DNA of 13,439 bases from an uncultured Nitrososphaerota archaeon (GTDB lineage: Archaea; Korarchaeota; Korarchaeia; Korarchaeales; Korarchaeaceae). Below the pieces are notes generated by a model, which was given only the letters and a program-made list of their open reading frames with translations, was not told the DNA's origin and did not search any database. This document shows, one piece after another, positions 2,098 to 12,254 of the stretch; within the stretch, counting starts at the first letter, position 1, and each line of letters begins with the position of its first letter. The stretch is from contig CAYZRF010000034.1 in assembly GCA_964480775.1 (NCBI GenBank), positions 1-13,439 on the forward strand. Reading direction: 5' to 3'. The position numbers and the translations under genes are program-made.

Positions 2098-3345
2098 TTA
2101 CTTCCAACGAATTTCCCTCTTGAGCAGACCGTCCAAATATCCTTTCAGACGAACCAACCCATGAATAGGCCTGTAAAATAGTATGGCCAGTGGCAAAACG
2201 AAGAGTACCCAAAATTCGCCTCTTTTTGGTGTTAAAATCCATGAAACAATTCCTAGGATGAGTTCGTTGATGAAGTAAAAGGGGATCATCAAGCCGTAAA
2301 CTGCAAAAGTAAGTTCGGGATGAAACGCTAGAAAATAAATTAACCAGATCAACTTCAAGCTAGTTGCCGCAAGATCATAAAAAACCATAGAAGGTACTCC
2401 AAGAAGGCCTGGGGTTCCAAAGAACGGATTGAATAGCAGGTCTCTGTGTTTGATAAGGGTTTCCAACTGCCCCTTTGACCACCTAATCCTCTGATTCATC
2501 CAATCTCTAAATGTCTCGGGGGCTCTTGTCCATGCAACTGCTTGCGGGGAAAACCTGACCCTCATCCTCGTTTTGTGTATTTTCAGTGTAAAATCGAAGT
2601 CTTCTGTTATAGTATCAGCGTCAAACATTCCAGTGGAAGTCAAGACTCTTCTCTTTGCCGCACCGTAGGCCCCAGGGATTATTAGGACGGTTCCTACAAG
2701 GCCATAAAACCTTCTTCCACTCTCCATACTTGTCATATATTCGTAGGCTTGAAGCTTGCACCAGAGAGATTCTCTATTAAGCACCTTAACGTTTCCCGCA
2801 ACGCCTCCTGTGTTAGGAAGCTGAAAGAACTTTACAAGTTCCCATAGGCTACCTCTTTCTATTAGCGTGTCTGCATCCATCACGACAACTATTTCACCTC
2901 TCGAAAACATCAACCCATAGTTCACTGCATATGCCTTTTTTCCACTTGGAGGCCTCCTCAGCAGCCTTATTTTTCCCTCTTTAGCGTATTTTGATGCTAT
3001 TTCATAGGTTCTGTCTGTTGAACCATCATCGACGACAATGACTTCCTTGTTTGGATACGGATCCTCAAGAACGGACAATATGCACCCCTCTATAGTCTCC
3101 TCCTCGTTATGAGCTGGGATTATCACTGAAATACTAGGAAAATAACTTTTCGTGAAGCCATATGGTCTAATTCTCCTGTATAGTTCGTGAAGGGGGAGCA
3201 CTATAGCCTTCGTAATCGTTCGAGTTAGGTCAAAGAGTATAGGAACAAGCAGGATGGAAATTGCTTGTTTGGGAGCGACTCCTAAGAAATTTAGGTATTC
3301 AAGGACTAAGTTCTTTACAAAATCCAAGACCATATGAATTCTCAC
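2098..3345 (-). CDS. Processive family-2 glycosyltransferase, PgaC/IcaA/NodC-like beta-glycan (probably hexosamine polymer) synthase, membrane-embedded
   Basis: 415 aa. Motifs: IIPAHNEE; VVDDGSTD (DDG at aa 106-108); DAD (nt 2869-2877, verified); TITEDFDF (TED at aa 247-249); PET...QRIRW (nt 2479-2493, verified). Has an N-terminal TM helix and about 3 C-terminal TM helices. Start is GTG 3345, directly after the upstream stop. An alternative ATG at 3333 is preceded by a GTGAG Shine-Dalgarno-like element (SD-like). Confidence 0.9.
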   Translation of the reverse strand: MRIHMVLDFVKNLVLEYLNFLGVAPKQAISILLVPILFDLTRTITKAIVLPLHELYRRIRPYGFTKSYFPSISVIIPAHNEEETIEGCILSVLEDPYPNKEVIVVDDGSTDRTYEIASKYAKEGKIRLLRRPPSGKKAYAVNYGLMFSRGEIVVVMDADTLIERGSLWELVKFFQLPNTGGVAGNVKVLNRESLWCKLQAYEYMTSMESGRRFYGLVGTVLIIPGAYGAAKRRVLTSTGMFDADTITEDFDFTLKIHKTRMRVRFSPQAVAWTRAPETFRDWMNQRIRWSKGQLETLIKHRDLLFNPFFGTPGLLGVPSMVFYDLAATSLKLIWLIYFLAFHPELTFAVYGLMIPFYFINELILGIVSWILTPKRGEFWVLFVLPLAILFYRPIHGLVRLKGYLDGLLKREIRWK

Positions 3346-4128
3346 TTACTCTACGACCCTAACCAAGAATTCGCAGTATGGATCTCCTCTAGAAATGCAC
3401 TTCCTTTCATCAACCGTGCAATCAGAGCCAAACACACCACTAAAGAACCCTGCTATAACCCCCCTGATAAACTGACTTCCCTTCATATCCCTTGAAAGAG
3501 CGCATTCAAAGTTCTTTTCCAGCCTAATTACAGCGATTTCATTGTCCAAGTCTATCTTGAAGGAAGATCCACTAACCCAACCCAAACTCTGAATTATGTC
3601 TAAGGCAGCCTGAATTAGCTCTTTGCCCTCAAGTCCGAGCCTTCTCTTCCATATCTCATAGGCTTCTCTGCCTCCTCCGTAACCCAGGTGATAAATGAAG
3701 ACCCTTCCGCCAGTTCCCCACCTCTTGTATATGTCCGCAAATATGCCAACGAGCCAATCAGCCCTGAAAAGCACCGCTCTCTCATCGAAGAACTCCAGCG
3801 TGGAGTGATGAACGTCTAAGAAAAGGGGCTTATCTAAAGCGGGAGTCCAAGCTATCTTTCTAACTCCTCCTACTTTTGCCAAGTCCGATGCAAGCTCATC
3901 TGGGTTGGTATCACCTAGATCTGCGAAAAAGCACCACCACGTGGCATTTGGCTCCTCGGACTTGTGATGAACCCCGTAAAGTATGTTGATCCCTCTCTTA
4001 GCTATCACATCAGAGACTTTGGCCAACATTCCTGGAATGTCTTCCATCAAAATCGAGACCTCTACCAGCTTCCTACCTTTGAGTTCAACAACCCTCCATA
4101 GAGGCAACTTGTGCATGGGATCAGGCAT
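3346..4128 (-). CDS. ACT domain + V4R (4-vinyl-reductase-type) small-molecule-binding domain protein
   Basis: 260 aa. The ACT-like beta-alpha-beta-beta-alpha-beta segment VEVSILMEDIPGMLAKVSDVIAKRGINILYG spans about nt 3850-4068. The C-terminal V4R pattern spans about nt 3355-3816 and ends in the hallmark C-x6-C-x7-C / GDPYCEF (CTVDERKCISRGDPYCEFLV). The stop TAA (3346-3348) is immediately followed by the GT2 start. Confidence 0.8.
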   Translation of the reverse strand: MPDPMHKLPLWRVVELKGRKLVEVSILMEDIPGMLAKVSDVIAKRGINILYGVHHKSEEPNATWWCFFADLGDTNPDELASDLAKVGGVRKIAWTPALDKPLFLDVHHSTLEFFDERAVLFRADWLVGIFADIYKRWGTGGRVFIYHLGYGGGREAYEIWKRRLGLEGKELIQAALDIIQSLGWVSGSSFKIDLDNEIAVIRLEKNFECALSRDMKGSQFIRGVIAGFFSGVFGSDCTVDERKCISRGDPYCEFLVRVVE

Positions 4129-4182
4129 CTCTTCCGCACTCCCTTTTTCTGATGAAGTTGAAAGGATAAAAAACTATACAAT

Positions 4183-5043
4183 TCAGCCCAGAATGAAGGT
4201 ATAGTATATCAAATTCAGGAAGAACAGTAACAACATGGAAACAGTTACCCTAGATCCTGTTTTGCCGTACATGGTTTCCACACCTCGCCATAACGTTATG
4301 AACTTCATCAACAGAGGGGAGATTAATGCAAACAATATGACGATCGAAAGAGTTAGGGGAGATAACTTTACCAAATGAGAATAAAATTGGAGAATGGGAA
4401 TCCCAAAAAGACCCAAAAATAACAAGTGAGCGAAATCTGCTGTAAGAACAATTTTCGAACCCTTTATGGCCTCAGAGAATTCAGGTTTACTTATTAACAT
4501 GCCAGCAAGCAGACCAATAGCAAGACTTTGTGCTATGAAAAGCATTGTGCCTAACAATAAGCCAAAGAAGCCCCTTAGAAAGGGTAAGTTCTGAAATAAT
4601 GTTGGAGGCAAGAAGAAGTTCGCAATTCTCTCGCCAAGAGCCGATAAAGCTAATCCGAACTCCAAACTGTAGCCCTGTCTTGCAACCAATGACGAAAAAA
4701 CAGAAATTAATGTCCCAACAGCAAACACCTTCCAAACTAGAATTCTAACAGGAGTATTTGATACCTTTTGGAAGAATTCCCTCGCTTTAGCTTCAGAGAA
4801 GGGCGTCAGGATGGAGGTAAATATGCTTGGAGCTCTTAATTGCTCAACTCTTCTATCTTTCTTTTCAACCCTGGGAGGCTCAACAAAAGAAAAAGCTTCT
4901 AAAAGCTCTGCTTGAAGATTAACTACAGCTCTCATGAGATCTATTGCCTCATCTAACTGAGAGTTTGTCGAAGGTGCGCTGACGTATTCCAGCTTGTCTC
5001 TAAGATTCATCATCATCCCTTGGGATATTAGAACCACTTCCAT
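4183..5043 (-). CDS. Multi-pass (about 5 TM) membrane protein with a roughly 100-aa cytoplasmic helical N-terminus, unknown family
   Basis: 286 aa. Hydrophobic segments: VRILVWKVFAVGTLISVFSSLVA, FFGLLLGTMLFIAQSLAIGLLAGMLI, FAHLLFLGLFGIPILQFY, LTLSIVILFALISPLLMKFITL, VTVSMLLLFFLNLIYYTFILG. The topology resembles Yip1-type proteins, but I cannot verify that. Alternative Met starts lie at aa 10-12. Confidence 0.75.
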   Translation of the reverse strand: MEVVLISQGMMMNLRDKLEYVSAPSTNSQLDEAIDLMRAVVNLQAELLEAFSFVEPPRVEKKDRRVEQLRAPSIFTSILTPFSEAKAREFFQKVSNTPVRILVWKVFAVGTLISVFSSLVARQGYSLEFGLALSALGERIANFFLPPTLFQNLPFLRGFFGLLLGTMLFIAQSLAIGLLAGMLISKPEFSEAIKGSKIVLTADFAHLLFLGLFGIPILQFYSHLVKLSPLTLSIVILFALISPLLMKFITLWRGVETMYGKTGSRVTVSMLLLFFLNLIYYTFILG

Positions 5044-5139: not shown

Positions 5140-6441
5140 TTAAGCGTATTCTAGCTTGCTTTGTATTTTCTCCTTTACATCTCTTATTTTCCTCAGTAAT
5201 GGGATAAATCTCTCTCCTCCTTCTTTCTTAGTCAAGCTCATAGCTAACATCTCCATTTGCTCTACAACATTAAGAAGACTCTTGTAAAATTCAGGACCAG
5301 GCTCAACAGCCTTATCGGCCATCTTTTCTTCGATTTCTCTTATCTTTTTGAAACTTGCAGCTAACTCTCGATGTTCTCTAGGTAGGACTTCTTCTATGTC
5401 AACTTCTGGAGCCGAAACTCTCCTTGTTTCTGGGACAAGAGCTTTAGTTTCTACGGGAACTGGGAGATGAATCTCAGATTCTATATGATCCGCAAGTCTT
5501 TTCTTCAGATCGTTAATATCTCCAGCCTCGATAATCTCTATACCAAAGGATTTGGCAATGTTCTTTGCATCATCTGAAACTCTTTGCGTCGAAGCTAAAA
5601 TGTATCTTCTTTGTCCCTCTTTTCCAGGCATCCCTGAAAGATCTATAACTTTTGTTATGAAAGGAGCTACGTTTTCCGAAGAAAGAATACCTTTTCCGCC
5701 ATATATGTCTACTAAATACTCAGTTCCGTTCTTTTTAGCCCTCAACGAGAAAGTATGCGTAACTCCAGATTTACCTCTCACTGAAGGCTTTCCTACGACC
5801 TTAAATCCTCTATTTTCCAGCTCTCCTGAGAACATTGATGGCCAGAAAATCAGCTCAGATAGTTTTCTTAATGCGTCGGGTTTTATTTTGTAGGAGTAAA
5901 GGGTCTTCATCTTTCCTTCTTTTTCCTTGAACTTATGATGACATTTAACACAGAGATATACTTTCTCGGGTGCTTCAAAGAAGTTGCCGCAAGATTTACA
6001 CTTGAAAATATCTCCAAGTCTTCTATAATCCTTACCAATCAGTCTAAGAGTCTTCCCACAACTTGGACATTTGAGGCTGCCGTCTGGCTGTAGGAACTCT
6101 TCCTCAAAACCAACGTAACCGCAGCCATAGTGCTCGATAACTTCTCCTTTCTGAAGATTGGAAGAACCACAATACGAACATGCTTGCTGGGTTATGTGAA
6201 GGGGGGATTCACACTTCGGACATACCAAGTATTCTCCTACCTTTTCTTTTGTCAGAATTCCTTGTTTCGCAAGTTCTTCTAGGATTTTACCGCTAGGATC
6301 TAATCCTAACAACTCTAATTCAGGGTAAATGTAGCCTCTAGATGGATGCAGTTCAGGTGAGAGTTCCATATCTTGGTTCTCTAGCAGCCATTCGAGTAGT
6401 GTTCTGACATCTTCCCTTTCAAAGAGTTTTGATGTCGACAT
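5140..6441 (-). CDS. wHTH + multi-Zn-ribbon + alpha/beta C-terminal domain protein, paralog B, with an extra C-terminal helical extension
   Basis: 433 aa, colinear with paralog A over about 320 aa. Cys/His ligand set: CPKC...CSYC, HxxC...CPSC, CKSC...CVKC (nt 5941-6222). A 52-aa hand-aligned stretch (KPSV..IDLS) is 42/52 identical to paralog A. The C-terminal roughly 110 aa (nt 5143-5469) has no counterpart in A. Confidence 0.9.
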   Translation of the reverse strand: MSTSKLFEREDVRTLLEWLLENQDMELSPELHPSRGYIYPELELLGLDPSGKILEELAKQGILTKEKVGEYLVCPKCESPLHITQQACSYCGSSNLQKGEVIEHYGCGYVGFEEEFLQPDGSLKCPSCGKTLRLIGKDYRRLGDIFKCKSCGNFFEAPEKVYLCVKCHHKFKEKEGKMKTLYSYKIKPDALRKLSELIFWPSMFSGELENRGFKVVGKPSVRGKSGVTHTFSLRAKKNGTEYLVDIYGGKGILSSENVAPFITKVIDLSGMPGKEGQRRYILASTQRVSDDAKNIAKSFGIEIIEAGDINDLKKRLADHIESEIHLPVPVETKALVPETRRVSAPEVDIEEVLPREHRELAASFKKIREIEEKMADKAVEPGPEFYKSLLNVVEQMEMLAMSLTKKEGGERFIPLLRKIRDVKEKIQSKLEYA

Positions 6442-8262: not shown

Positions 8263-8481
8263 CTATTCCTCTATTTCAAAAACCTTGTTTCTGGAGGTTG
8301 TCCCACGAATTAGTCGCACCTTAGAAGGGCTAACTCCGAAATGCTTGGCTATTATTTTAATGGCTTCCTCATTCGCCTTTCCTCTTTCAGGAGAGGATCT
8401 AACCCTCACAACTATCTCTCCATATTCCTCGGTTATGCTCGGAGACTTGGATTTTGGAATTACCTTAACTCGAATCCTCAA
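8263..8481 (-). CDS. DUF167 / YggU-family (UPF0235) small protein
   Basis: 72 aa with a TTG start. The sequence RIRVKVIPKSK...IVVRVRSSPERGKANEEAIKIIAKHFGVSPSKVRLIRGTTSRNKVFEI matches the remembered family signature (P-x-x-GKAN ... G-x-t-S-R-x-K). The plus-strand ORF 8255..8530 is its antisense shadow. Confidence 0.8.
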   Translation of the reverse strand: MRIRVKVIPKSKSPSITEEYGEIVVRVRSSPERGKANEEAIKIIAKHFGVSPSKVRLIRGTTSRNKVFEIEE

Positions 8482-8869: not shown

Positions 8870-9109
8870 ATGACTAGGGTGAAGGTCACTAGAAGCTATC
8901 AGGTCACGATACCCAAAGAGATAAGGGAAAGAATAGGGCTAAAGGAAGGAGATTACTTACAAGTTGAAGTTGACGACGAAGGAAGGATAATAATGTCTAA
9001 ATCTAGGAGAGAAAGGAGGACTTTGAGAGCTGGTAGGCCTCTTAAGCCTGATGAGATAGAGAAGCTCATAGAGCTTGGAATCAAGAGAAGTCTCATTTCT
9101 GGTGAGTAA
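8870..9109 (+). CDS. vapB: AbrB/SpoVT-fold antitoxin (VapB-like)
   Basis: 79 aa. VKVTRSYQVTIPKEIRERIGLKEGDYLQVEVDDEGRIIM is a classic swapped-hairpin AbrB/MazE N-terminal motif. The basic/acidic C-terminal tail, small size and overlap with a PIN gene fit an antitoxin. Confidence 0.85.
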   Translation: MTRVKVTRSYQVTIPKEIRERIGLKEGDYLQVEVDDEGRIIMSKSRRERRTLRAGRPLKPDEIEKLIELGIKRSLISGE

Positions 9110-9542
9110 ATTGGCATCAGCAGTGTTGGATACCAACGTCATCGTGTACGACACATTCGAGGACTCGTTGTATCACGAGATGGCCAGAGAACTCCTGGAC
9201 TCCCTCGACGTGTGGGTCCTACCTCTGATAGTGCTATACGAGTATGTCTGGTTGATGAAAGAGCTAGGCGTTAACCTTGAGGACATCTCAGCTAAAGTGT
9301 ATGAGTACGCTTGGGACCCTAAGGCTAGGGTTACTTCAGGAGGAAAGGACGCAGTTAGGTGGGCTTTAGCGGATCTCATGGAGGAGAGGCTATCCGCATC
9401 TAGGTTCAACGATAAGGTGGTATTGTCAGTAGCCGAGAGGGAAGGAATTCCTCTAGCTACTTTTGACAGGGGGCTGAGAGTTCAGGCTCATAGGGTAAAC
9501 GTAGAGGTGCTCCCTATCTCTATTGATGTGCATGAATCTTGA
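9102..9542 (+). CDS. vapC: PIN-domain ribonuclease toxin (VapC-like)
   Basis: The track ORF starts at 9075. The likely start is GTG 9102, overlapping the vapB stop by 8 nt (GTGAGTAA), or TTG 9111. Conserved PIN acidic residues in expected contexts: VLDTNVIVY, LYEYVW, FNDKVV, LATFD. Confidence 0.85.
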   Translation: MSKLASAVLDTNVIVYDTFEDSLYHEMARELLDSLDVWVLPLIVLYEYVWLMKELGVNLEDISAKVYEYAWDPKARVTSGGKDAVRWALADLMEERLSASRFNDKVVLSVAEREGIPLATFDRGLRVQAHRVNVEVLPISIDVHES

Positions 9543-9917
9543 GATTATTTGCTTGATCTCAGCACCGTCTCTTGTTAGTTCCAAGGACTCTTATTCTCTC
9601 CAATTTCTTCCTAAGGATGCCCCCTATCCCTATTTTGCTAGCCGAAGACTGCTTGCAAACTCAAGTAGCATGCGACGATGCCTGTTAGAGCTGTTTGAGG
9701 GATTATATGGGATGCTAACCACCAGAAATAGACAGGGCAGGAAGAAAGGATTATCGGGTTAACAAGACTAAATGCAAGTTAAAGCTCCATAGATTCGACG
9801 TATCATTTGCTGAAGACGAAATATAATCACTGTTTTCAAATAATATATCCTGATGTTGTTGGTTAATCCGAGATGCCAGTATAAACCTTAAAGAACCCTA
9901 GCTATTTTCTATCAAGA

Positions 9918-12254
9918 ATGAACTCTTATCGGTGCATTGTTCTCCTAATTGTGCTTTTCTTAACTAATATTACTCCTTTGTTCTCCCAACGAGAAGTTTC
10001 CAGCTTTTTGGAATTATATGGAGTAAGAGCAGTTCAACTGGACTTGGACTTAATTTATGACCCAAACCAGGTCGAATTTAGAAGGAGAGTTGATCTTGTA
10101 CTTGATAGACTGATTTCGATAGGTGCTAATTTAGTTCTCCTTCAAGTTTTTCAAGATCCAGATGGAGACGGTTCCGCCAACGGAGTCTACTTCAAGACAG
10201 ACATGGCTCCAAGTTTAGATGCTTTAGGAACATTCTTGGAGGAGGCAAGAGAGAGGAACATCAAGATTTTTGCGTGGATGACCACACTAACATGTTCTTG
10301 GGTATTAGAGGAACATCCAAACTGGGAAATCTTGTCCTTCGATCCCGATTCAGGGAGTTATGTCACGGGGAAGTACTGGTACAGGAGAGCTTCACCATTC
10401 TGTGACGACTTTGTGGCATATTTAAGGGATCTTTATGCTGATCTTGCCTCCTACCCGCTAGACGGAATTCTTCTACAAGATGATCTCTACTTAGGCGAGT
10501 GGGAAGATTTCAGCGAATGGGCTAGATCAGCATTTAGGAAAGAATACGGATTAGAACTGACACCCTCGTTGTTAAAGATGGGAGGTTGGAGGGAAAAATG
10601 GATTAATTGGAAAGCAGAGCGACTTATGCACATTGCAAGGATTTTAGAGGAAACAGTTAAGGAAAGGAGACCTGAAGCCATCTTTTCAATCGATGTGTAC
10701 TCTGATGTGCTCATATATGATGACGCCTCTTCTTGGCTAGCTCAAGACAAGAACCTCCTTGCAAATTCGGATTTTTTCATGGTGATAATGGCCTATCCAT
10801 TTTTGGAAAATGCAGATAATCCAGAAGAGTGGATGGAAGCTGTAGCAAGGGAAGCCGTTACTGTATTTGGAAAAGGAAAAACTCTGATAAAGGTACAATC
10901 TTACGACTGGAAAAATGAATTGTGGATCCCTTCTAATGTTTTTAGTTCGATCATAGAAGCAGCATATGAAGGAGGAGCCGTAAATGTGGGGTACTATCCT
11001 GAAGACCCGTTTTCAGGAATTCCAGACGCTCAAACAGTTAGGAATGCCTTCTTAGTTTATGGAACAACTCCATCAAGACCCGTTCATGTTCTTATGCTTT
11101 CTAACTCAGTAGATTTGCCAGCGGCAAGAAAACTTGCTGTCAACATCGGAAGGCACGGAGTATTGGTGACATTAACTAACGAAAATGTAAACATTTCTCG
11201 AGGTGCTATGATAATTCTTGGGGGTCCTAAAGCATATGAGGGCATAGGAGATATTTCAAACGGTTATTTGCCAAAACCCCAGGCTGAAAAGCTTATTTCA
11301 GAGGAAGATTCGATGGTTTCGATTGTTAGCAGGAAGAATGAAATAGACTATGTGATAATAGCCGGACACACAAGAATAGAAACTGCTAGAGCAGCGTCAG
11401 AATTTCCTGCGCCATGGATAAGGCTTACAGCCCTTTCTGACTACATTCTGGGTTGTAGACCAGTGAGACTAGGACCTGTAGTTTATTCTTATCAGGGGGT
11501 TACTTTCGAAGACCTGAGCAAGGTAAACGCAACAATTCTCGTCGTAGATCCAGATGATTCGAGATTAAGCAAGGAGGACACAGTTAAACTCCACGAGCAG
11601 GGGAAGACTGTTATAGCATATCTAAGCATAGGGCAAGCAGAATCTTACAGATCATACTGGGACGATAAATGGGAACTGGATACACCTCGCTGGCTGGGAA
11701 CAGAGGATCTGGAGTGGCCTGAGAACTATTGGGTTAGGTACTGGGACCAAGAATGGAAGAATATTGTGTTTACTTGCTTGCATGAAATTATCGAAAAAGG
11801 CTTCGATGGAGTCTTATTGGACAGAGTTGACGCATACGAGTATTGGGAGGACAAAGGCGTGCTAGACGCCAAACAGAAGATGCTGAATTTCGTTTTAGAA
11901 ATATCAGCGAGGGCAAAGCAAGAGAGATGTTTCCTCATAATTCCTCAAAACGCTGAGGAGCTGATAGAGGACCATCATTACTTGGAAGCGATAGATGGGG
12001 TAAGTTCTGAAGATGTCTGGACCATTGGAAACGATGAGAGACCTCAAGATGAGGTTGAACTCAGGTTGAACACACTAGATAGAATTATCTCACGTGGAAA
12101 ATTAGTATTGGTCTTAGATTATCCTTCTTCGGCTAAAATGAGGGAGATATTCTGCTTAAAGGCGAGGGAAAGGGGATATATTCCATATTCCTCCTCAATC
12201 GACCTTTCAGGCATAAATTACGATTTCCTAAATAGGTGCTGGGAAGCCCCCTAA
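9918..12254 (+). CDS. Secreted two-module polysaccharide-processing protein: PgaB-C-terminal-like (GHL13) domain + alpha/beta linker domain + GH114/TM1410-MJ1477-like domain
   Basis: 778 aa. Signal peptide: MNSYRCIVLLIVLFLTNITPLFSQ. Module 1 (about nt 10020-11012): AVQLDLDLIYDP...LISIGANLVLLQVFQDPDGDGSANGVYFKT...IKIFAWM...LDGILLQDDLYL, which matches my memory of the PgaB C-terminal domain (VDLDYVYDPD, LQAFADPDGDG, AWMP, DGILFHDD). Module 3 (about nt 11460-12212): ILVVDPDD...VIAYLSIGQAESYRSYW...NYWVRYWDQEWKNI...GFDGVLLDRVDAYEYW, the GH114/TM1410-type signature. The middle domain (about nt 11070-11417) is unassigned. No C-terminal anchor. Confidence 0.85.
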   Translation: MNSYRCIVLLIVLFLTNITPLFSQREVSSFLELYGVRAVQLDLDLIYDPNQVEFRRRVDLVLDRLISIGANLVLLQVFQDPDGDGSANGVYFKTDMAPSLDALGTFLEEARERNIKIFAWMTTLTCSWVLEEHPNWEILSFDPDSGSYVTGKYWYRRASPFCDDFVAYLRDLYADLASYPLDGILLQDDLYLGEWEDFSEWARSAFRKEYGLELTPSLLKMGGWREKWINWKAERLMHIARILEETVKERRPEAIFSIDVYSDVLIYDDASSWLAQDKNLLANSDFFMVIMAYPFLENADNPEEWMEAVAREAVTVFGKGKTLIKVQSYDWKNELWIPSNVFSSIIEAAYEGGAVNVGYYPEDPFSGIPDAQTVRNAFLVYGTTPSRPVHVLMLSNSVDLPAARKLAVNIGRHGVLVTLTNENVNISRGAMIILGGPKAYEGIGDISNGYLPKPQAEKLISEEDSMVSIVSRKNEIDYVIIAGHTRIETARAASEFPAPWIRLTALSDYILGCRPVRLGPVVYSYQGVTFEDLSKVNATILVVDPDDSRLSKEDTVKLHEQGKTVIAYLSIGQAESYRSYWDDKWELDTPRWLGTEDLEWPENYWVRYWDQEWKNIVFTCLHEIIEKGFDGVLLDRVDAYEYWEDKGVLDAKQKMLNFVLEISARAKQERCFLIIPQNAEELIEDHHYLEAIDGVSSEDVWTIGNDERPQDEVELRLNTLDRIISRGKLVLVLDYPSSAKMREIFCLKARERGYIPYSSSIDLSGINYDFLNRCWEAP

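Follow-up and report, generated by a model that had tools for sequence, protein, structure and literature searches.

What does an archaeon do with a single protein that carries two unlike glycoside hydrolase (GH) heads? The question is raised by a 13,439-nucleotide stretch of DNA from an uncultured Nitrososphaerota archaeon of the Korarchaeaceae (assembly GCA_964480775.1, contig CAYZRF010000034.1), which was analysed at its full length and is called the window below. One of its genes, at 9918..12254 on the + strand, encodes a protein of 778 amino acids (aa) with a PgaB-like barrel towards one end, a TM1410-like barrel at the other and a further module between them. To our knowledge, the hydrolases of biofilm polysaccharides described until now each have a single head that acts on one polymer, with PgaB serving poly-N-acetylglucosamine (PNAG) and PelA, Ega3, Sph3 and GH191 enzymes serving galactosamine (GalN)-type polymers. 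We find that both heads of the fusion retain the catalytic residues of their families and that, at the sensitivity reached, the combination is confined to a small archaeal clade. On balance we lean towards the view that the protein is an exported, two-headed glycoside hydrolase that would cut a hexosamine-rich polysaccharide of the extracellular matrix, perhaps while held at the cell surface.

Architecture of the fusion protein

The gene and the parts of its product are as follows, with the evidence for each; HMM stands for hidden Markov model.

9918..12254, + strand: fusion gene, a single open reading frame (ORF) of 778 aa with an ATG start, comprising signal segment, GH153 head, middle module and GH191 head
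9918..9989, + strand: signal peptide or signal anchor at the N-terminus, aa 1-24 (MNSYRCIVLLIVLFLTNITPLFSQ), from hydropathy, structural model and orthologues
10026..11012, + strand: GH153-type (Pfam GHL13, PgaB C-terminal-like) (beta/alpha)8 head, aa 37-365, from HMM, PDB and Foldseek
10479-10481, + strand: putative catalytic Asp188, mapping to BpsB D474
11079..11453, + strand: middle alpha/beta module, aa 388-512, about 125 aa, with the motifs SNSVD..AAR.L, ILGGPKAYEGIG and IIAGHTRxETA
11463..12242, + strand: GH191 (TM1410/MJ1477-type) (beta/alpha)8 head, aa 516-775, from HMM, PDB and Foldseek
11820-11822, + strand: putative nucleophile Asp635, mapping to TmGH191 D156
12009-12011, + strand: putative acid/base Glu698, mapping to TmGH191 E225

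An earlier note, made from the letters of the window alone, had proposed two hydrolase-type modules and no deacetylase domain, and this architecture, with both modules as barrels, is borne out. We trust the domain assignments because three independent routes lead to them: HMM libraries, sequence search of the PDB, and an AlphaFold2 (AF2) model compared with known structures by Foldseek. The motifs on which the proposal was built all lie in the protein, with LDLDLIY at 41-47, FQDPDGDG at 78-85, LLQDD at 185-189, YLSIGQAESYRSYW at 568-581, YWVRYW at 604-609 and LLDRVD at 633-638. In a Pfam profile scan, GHL13 (PF14883) covered aa 40-360 (E 9e-52) and spanned the whole 324-position model, and Glyco_hydro_114 (PF03537) covered aa 535-763 (E 6e-33), with no overlap between the two. 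There was no PF01522 match to this protein and no CE4 domain in any other ORF of the window, in keeping with the claim that a CE4-type deacetylase domain is missing from both. In a mixed MAFFT alignment of full-length PgaB and GH191 homologues, which was discarded, the PgaB barrels were matched to the wrong one of the query's two barrels; the full-length AF2 model was built on a hand-checked alignment with the PgaB sequences trimmed to the relevant segments, and its predicted local distance difference test (pLDDT) score is about 90-98 in both barrels.

Export of the fusion protein is likely, since the most hydrophobic stretch of the whole sequence lies at aa 5-22 and follows an arginine (R5), and a hydrophobic N-terminus is kept in 4 of the 5 orthologues. 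The AF2 model has a helix at residues 3-16, and residues 18-35 after it are disordered. Of the signal peptide claimed earlier, the hydrophobic, signal-like N-terminus therefore stands; it may be a cleaved signal or an N-terminal anchor.

The N-terminal head

Searched against the PDB, the N-terminal part of the protein matched the GH domain of BpsB (6au1) at 6e-35 and the C-terminal domain of E. coli PgaB (4p7l) at 6e-32, and Foldseek superposed the corresponding head of the AF2 model on the PgaB C-terminal domain with a template modelling (TM) score of 0.82. By sequence and predicted fold it belongs to CAZy family GH153, to which Pfam GHL13 corresponds. Its nearest relatives are genuine two-domain, CE4-fused PgaB proteins. 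The fusion protein itself, as judged from its sequence, is not a PgaB orthologue, because the CE4 deacetylase domain is absent from its N-terminus; the PgaB equivalog models of NCBIfam match through their C-terminal half only, and all of them stay below cutoff (181, 150 and 117 bits against 322, 923 and 1091). The match to TIGR03938 (181 bits, cutoff 322) covers model positions 272-618 of 621.

In BpsB, D474 is the probable catalytic acid, D326, D328, D364 and E585 are binding residues, and the H473A substitution removes >90% of activity (Little et al. 2018, PMC5933820). These residues were transferred to the window protein through the 6au1 alignment:

BpsB D474: window D188
BpsB D326: window D42
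BpsB D328: window D44
BpsB D364: window D80
BpsB E585: window E297
BpsB H473: window Q187

The catalytic aspartate and the four acidic residues of the groove (D42, D44, D80 and E297) are thus retained, and an aspartate occupies the D188 position in all 39 of the 39 nearest GHL13 representatives. At the Q187 position glutamine is found in 34 of these 39 and in 17 of the 18 nearest CE4-containing PgaB proteins. Because glutamine is the majority state among the closest relatives, genuine CE4-PgaB proteins included, the change from histidine looks like a trait of the subfamily rather than a sign of loss or decay.

The C-terminal head

The C-terminal head scores 236 bits against the NCBIfam model TIGR01370 (MJ1477/TM1410 family putative glycoside hydrolase), above the curated cutoff of 181. 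In the PDB sequence search the C-terminal part of the protein matched T. maritima TM1410 at 3e-46, PelA at 5e-6 and Ega3 at 2e-5, and Env-GH191 matched the query at 6e-26. Foldseek gave a TM score of 0.82-0.84 with a root-mean-square deviation of about 1.9 A and 35% identity against TmGH191, and a TM score of 0.66 against the GH114 enzyme of F. solani. Family GH191 was founded on TM1410 and one environmental homologue, both outside GH114, and the PelA hydrolase domain is classed as GH166 (Roth et al. 2025, PMC12054363). The head had been named GH114, and PelA cited as a member of that family; both statements need correction, PelA belonging to GH166 and the head rather to the TM1410 clade of GH191, as the gap between Ega3 (2e-5) and TM1410 (3e-46) indicates. 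The Pfam model called 'GH114' spans both GH114 and GH191, so that of the two profile assignments expected earlier GHL13 holds as given and the C-terminal one holds as a Pfam match, to a head that is really GH191.

TmGH191 has D156 as its proposed nucleophile and E225 as its proposed acid/base (PMC12054363). In 9eux numbering the aspartate of YLDRID in TM1410 is 156 and the glutamate of WAVEN is 225; they align with D635 (LLDRVD) and E698 (SSEDVW) of the window protein, and both residues are unchanged in 58 of 58 GH191 homologues and in 5 of 5 orthologues. Checking the catalytic residues of both heads, which the earlier note had advised, thus found D188, D635 and E698 present and invariant among the orthologues.

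What this head would cut is less firmly indicated. TmGH191 showed neither activity nor binding on galactosaminogalactan, and Env-GH191 alone of the two founders cut Pel, preferring GalN-rich stretches (PMC12054363). The cleavage of alpha-1,4-linked GalN/GalNAc polymers that had been ascribed to the head is an extrapolation, because TmGH191 was inactive on the substrates tried and only the more distant Env-GH191 cut Pel. The GH153 head has an isoelectric point (pI) of 4.4, with 56 acidic and 31 basic residues, and the GH191 head a pI of 4.6, with 50 acidic and 30 basic residues; such strongly acidic heads would fit cationic, partly deacetylated hexosamine polymers, an acidic pI being weak evidence.

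Many proteins of the TM1410 family are named 'cysteinyl-tRNA synthetase' in Joint Genome Institute (JGI) annotation, an error that is still propagating. The name reportedly goes back to an early claim about MJ1477 that was withdrawn afterwards.

The middle module

The middle module, taken alone, had no significant match in Pfam or in the PDB, and its AF2 confidence is poor (pLDDT 37 when modelled alone with three sequences, 45-67 in the full-length model). Profile search nevertheless recovered standalone homologues (P0318-P0325) of 157-257 aa at 34-41% identity, so that the description of this domain as unassigned no longer holds in full. Most of them carry signal-like N-termini, and they have in common the motifs SNSVD..AA..L, ILGGPxAYEG[IV]G and IIAGxTRxET. 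Together these sequences define an undescribed family of small, putatively secreted archaeal proteins.

A weak likeness to surface-layer (S-layer) anchors runs through this family. Several homologues weakly match S_layer_C (PF05124), with E-values of 8e-4 to 0.16 that miss the Pfam cutoff, and the family profile matches PDB 9FSA marginally (E 0.035). The latter structure is the anchor-dimerisation domain of the S-layer protein of Methanococcus voltae (PMC11410804). In a Thermoproteota metagenome-assembled genome (MAG), the gene for P0318 lies directly upstream of a 461-aa S_layer_C-like gene (L015 6001-8125), and hhalign aligned the middle module with residues 33-159, in the N-terminal part of that 461-aa protein, at 56% probability. 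We regard a role of the module in surface tethering or dimerisation as possible, and as a lead rather than a finding.

Rarity and archaeal host

Scanned exhaustively with HMMER, 1.84e9 representative proteins yielded 3299 matches, a listing that excludes very diverged fusions below about 152 bits in total, and among these the only full-length match to both domains was the window's own cluster; the combination is as unusual as had been supposed. Other proteins matched in several stretches were considered as candidate fusions and rejected, as none of them unites both families: P0144 consists of three tandem GH191 copies, P0151, P0171, P0211 and P0228 of two copies each, and P0189 and P0255 of GHL13 joined to other, unrelated modules. 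A word-indexed search of 5.8e9 clusters added four full-length orthologues at 69-75% identity, over which the catalytic residues are invariant. Standalone GH153-type barrels without a deacetylase exist outside this clade, for example in a Methanothrix protein. The novelty accordingly lies in the fusion, which at the sensitivity reached is unique, in its occurrence in an archaeon and in a middle module that is uncharacterised; both catalytic families, and the notion of hydrolases that process a matrix, were already known.

In genome and metagenome scans the gene was seen only in MAGs titled Thermoproteota or Nitrososphaerota archaeon and in metagenomes of Guaymas and of similar kind. Its carriers come mostly from Guaymas Basin and include the isolates B8_G17 and B15_G15, both from that basin, and one named Kor4. 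The archaeal origin proposed earlier is upheld by these carriers, all Thermoproteota-type MAGs, and the neighbouring genes of the window (TackOD1, V4R, an EF-1-alpha/SelB-like GTPase and DUF166) agree with it.

Genomic neighbourhood

The features upstream of the fusion gene that bear on its possible partners are these:

1-680, - strand: KaiC-like ATPase, 5' part of the gene, inferred from alignment to L001 1925-3325
906-1898, - strand: second TackOD1 paralogue, 57% identical to that at 5140-6441, the two bracketing the block of the family 2 glycosyltransferase (GT2)
2098..5043, - strand: candidate partner block of GT2, ACT+V4R protein and membrane protein
2098-3345, - strand: processive GT2, best match PgaC/IcaA, with a QRIRW motif
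3346-4128, - strand: ACT+V4R protein
4183-5043, - strand: multi-pass membrane protein with no family match
5140..6441, - strand: TackOD1-domain zinc-ribbon protein beside the GT2 block
8870-9542, + strand: VapBC-type toxin-antitoxin pair, between GTPase and hydrolase
9880..9895, + strand: A/T-rich TATA-like element (TATAAACCTTAAAGAA), 23-38 nucleotides upstream of the hydrolase ATG

The GT2 matches Glyco_trans_2_3 and Chitin_synth_2 and, with its QRIRW motif, has the features of a processive synthase; PgaA and PgaD were not detected among the ORFs of the window. It lies 6.5 kb from the hydrolase on the opposite strand, and a divergently transcribed GTPase gene and the VapBC pair stand between the block and the hydrolase. 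The output domain TackOD1, which has no known function, occurs in TACK archaea and in type IV pilus loci (PMC5847659). The order of GT2 block, TackOD1, GTPase on the opposite strand and hydrolase recurs at L001 (69% orthologue) and L016 (75%), so that the GT2-ACT/V4R-membrane block is near the hydrolase in 3 of the 4 lineages with enough sequence (the window, L001 and L016). This synteny reflects the shared ancestry of close relatives and is not independent evidence of a functional link.

The fourth lineage (L007/L021) has an ATPase gene followed by a single TackOD1 gene (L007 4534-5520), and the three-gene block is missing there. Assembly collapse of the TackOD1 paralogues is an unlikely cause, since they share only 57% amino-acid identity, and recombination between them is a plausible one. 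At L016 2959-3273 lies a 104-aa TackOD1 remnant with an internal deletion. Because the paralogues bracket the block, L007 has one TackOD1 gene and no block, and L016 keeps a remnant, the pattern suggests that recombination between TackOD1 paralogues moves or deletes the GT2 block.

In the window, L017, L007, L003 and L016 alike, a TTAAAG/TTAAAT core is placed equally far from the ATG, and the TATA-like element at 9880..9895 is likely the promoter of the hydrolase gene itself. A convergent gene lies downstream of the hydrolase. The link to the GT2 at 2098-3345 that had been suggested therefore stands as proximity in the window, L001 and L016, and is weakened by the kinship of these lineages, the opposite strands, the hydrolase's own TATA-like element and the absence of the block from L007.

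The slot between GTPase and hydrolase is variable. In the window the VapBC pair consists of two overlapping ORFs, one AbrB/SpoVT-like with 79 aa (8870-9109) and one with a PIN domain (9075-9542); in this place L003 carries a nucleotidyltransferase/HEPN pair, L016 a 240-aa gene and L001 nothing. Elsewhere in the window, a 72-aa ORF at 8263-8481 on the - strand (MRIRVKVIPKSK...ERGKANEE...) resembles the DUF167/YggU family, judged by eye, and a + strand ORF at 8-457, antisense to the KaiC-like ATPase gene, is probably not a gene.

Comparison with known systems

Relatives of each head occur in gene clusters that offer a context for function. In Methanothrix (L011/L012 5547-10153) a co-directional cluster holds a GT2, an NAD-dependent epimerase, a standalone GHL13 protein and a DUF2334 protein, the last of which we take to be deacetylase-like, and it could be an archaeal hexosamine exopolysaccharide operon. 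The gene for a bacterial GH191 protein, 41% identical to the C-terminal head, directly follows genes for a PelF-like protein (DUF3492 + GT4) and PelG; in this Pel-like cluster (L023 1-7948) epimerase, DUF2194, PelF-like GT4 and PelG genes are followed at the end by the TM1410-type GH191 gene, which is evidence from context for a role of the TM1410 clade in Pel-type systems. Given the PgaB-type relatives of the N-terminal head and the Methanothrix cluster on the one hand, and the GH191 gene next to PelF and PelG on the other, the family of each head is tied to a different exopolysaccharide pathway, Pga-type and Pel-type respectively. Neither for MJ1477 nor for archaeal PNAG/PgaC systems did a search of the literature turn up anything relevant.

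The nearest known counterparts of the fusion each resemble it in part. With the PgaB/BpsB C-terminal domain it shares the fold, the catalytic aspartate, the four groove acids and an acidic surface, but it lacks CE4, has glutamine for His473, is fused to a second hydrolase and belongs to an archaeon without an outer membrane and without PgaA. Its other head passes the TIGR01370 cutoff and has the fold and the conserved Asp/Glu pair of TmGH191 and Env-GH191, whereas known members have one domain and about 300 aa and here the barrel is the C-terminal part of a 778-aa fusion. The endo-alpha-1,4-galactosaminidases of GH114 (Ega3), GH166 (PelA) and GH135 (Sph3) are alike in barrel and in the positions of catalytic residues, although the C-terminal head is only remotely similar to them (PelA 5e-6, Ega3 2e-5) and falls outside these families. 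The 369-aa GHL13 protein of Methanothrix is likewise an archaeal GH153-type barrel without CE4 that adjoins a GT2, but it is a single domain, co-directional with that GT2, and has neither a GH191 head nor the middle module. Cwp19 of Clostridioides difficile, in which a GHL10 barrel is joined to CWB2 repeats, offers a parallel for a GHL-type barrel attached to a surface-anchoring alpha/beta module, down to an AG-x-x-R-x-E-T-like motif in the latter; it differs in GH family, peptidoglycan substrate and bacterial host, and the likeness of the anchoring modules is marginal.

Proposed function of the two-headed enzyme

In the reading that we favour, the protein would be exported and may be held at the cell surface, where the middle module would tether or dimerise it at the S-layer. 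The GH153 head would cut partly de-N-acetylated poly-beta-1,6-GlcNAc by means of a single essential aspartate, D188, and the GH191 head would use the D635/E698 pair in the manner of the endo-alpha-1,4-galactosaminidase group GH114/GH135/GH166/GH191. The predicted job is endo-cleavage of a matrix polysaccharide for trimming, release or dispersal, and one candidate for the substrate is what the nearby PgaC/IcaA-like synthase block would produce.

Several observations pull in the other direction. The gene carries frame changes in two lineages, one represented by two assemblies (L006 1324-3422 and L022 2-1610), with breaks in the middle module and, in the GH191 head, between its catalytic Asp and Glu, and the other being Kor4 (L008 3808-5964); these reflect either pseudogenisation or assembly error, and a gene with frame changes in two lineages is to that extent dispensable. 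The best curated match of the GT2, to PgaC/IcaA, reaches 181 bits, far under the cutoff of 422. The closest relative of the window (L007/L021, about 94% DNA identity) retains the hydrolase at a locus that lacks the GT2 block, and, with a conserved TATA-like element before it and a convergent gene after it, the hydrolase is, on the arrangement of these elements, a separate and divergently placed transcription unit. No CE4 or other deacetylase-like ORF was found in the window, nor within <=10 kb on either side of the gene in L001. As for the heads themselves, the histidine before the catalytic aspartate, needed for full activity in BpsB (H473), is Gln187 here, and TmGH191, the closest solved relative of the C-terminal head, had no detectable activity or binding on galactosaminogalactan. 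The S-layer likeness of the middle module, finally, is marginal (E 0.035; 56% hhalign probability).

Some of these points would be expected if the protein were a tool of foraging or antagonism, exported to cut the PNAG-like and Pel-like polysaccharides, the two most common cationic types of bacterial biofilms, that neighbours in hydrothermal sediment make, so as to release sugar or loosen a foreign matrix rather than process a polymer of the cell's own. The families of the two heads are linked to polymers of different chemistry, and one homopolymer made by the cell itself would not call for both heads; a promoter-like element of its own precedes the hydrolase, which stands outside any synthase operon; it persists in L007 without an adjacent GT2 block; no deacetylase, PelF or PelG gene is nearby in the window or L001; and its patchy, sometimes decayed distribution resembles that of an accessory trait. 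We nonetheless consider foraging rather unlikely, as no sugar-uptake or catabolic genes adjoin the hydrolase in the window or L001, both families in bacteria typically sit within biosynthetic loci, and the GT2-block synteny of three lineages would have to be coincidence. A bolder form of the same idea, in which a Korarchaeia-like lineage bears an S-layer-mounted, thermostable PNAG and Pel double cutter against bacterial biofilms, with which to invade, feed on or disperse them, is in our judgement decidedly unlikely. Synteny in three lineages favours an own polymer, and the two specificities, the separate promoter, the missing deacetylase, the GT2-less relative and the patchy, partly decayed distribution favour a bacterial one.

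A different doubt concerns catalysis itself. PgaB's C-terminal domain was long regarded as polysaccharide-binding, and one head of the fusion, or neither, might be catalytic, with the other serving as a binding module, or the substrates might not be hexosamine polymers at all. The glutamine at the His473 position, the inactivity of TmGH191 on the substrates tried, and the fact that specificity is known from one or two characterised enzymes per family would all agree with this. It is a minority possibility, and quite improbable, in that a head that only binds requires fully conserved catalytic residues to be ignored: D188, D635, E698 and the groove acids are all kept and invariant, and glutamine at the histidine position is the norm in related CE4-PgaB proteins. 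Very unlikely is a role in remodelling the cell's own envelope, with the protein seated in the S-layer through its middle module and trimming envelope glycans or capsule during growth or division. The resemblance of that module to S-layer anchor and outer domains, and the standalone homologue adjoining an S-layer-like gene, would suit such a role, but the likeness is marginal, frameshifts in two lineages are not expected of an essential envelope enzyme, and action on N-glycans is not known for either GH family. Cleavage of a hexosamine-rich matrix polysaccharide by an exported enzyme thus remains the reading to which we incline.

Significance

The scope of these results is set by the facts that both families were known before, that the clade is tiny with some copies decaying, and that the functional account is prediction throughout. 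Within it, the fusion gives the TM1410 clade of GH191 a second test case, one that is easy to express. If both of its heads prove active, this protein of a hot-sediment archaeon would be the first matrix hydrolase of dual specificity, would offer a thermostable scaffold for anti-biofilm enzymes, and would indirectly suggest that hexosamine exopolysaccharides are made or attacked by TACK archaea. Should the double-cutter reading prove true, the protein would be an archaeal enzyme aimed at the bacterial matrix and equipped with an undescribed surface-tethering module.

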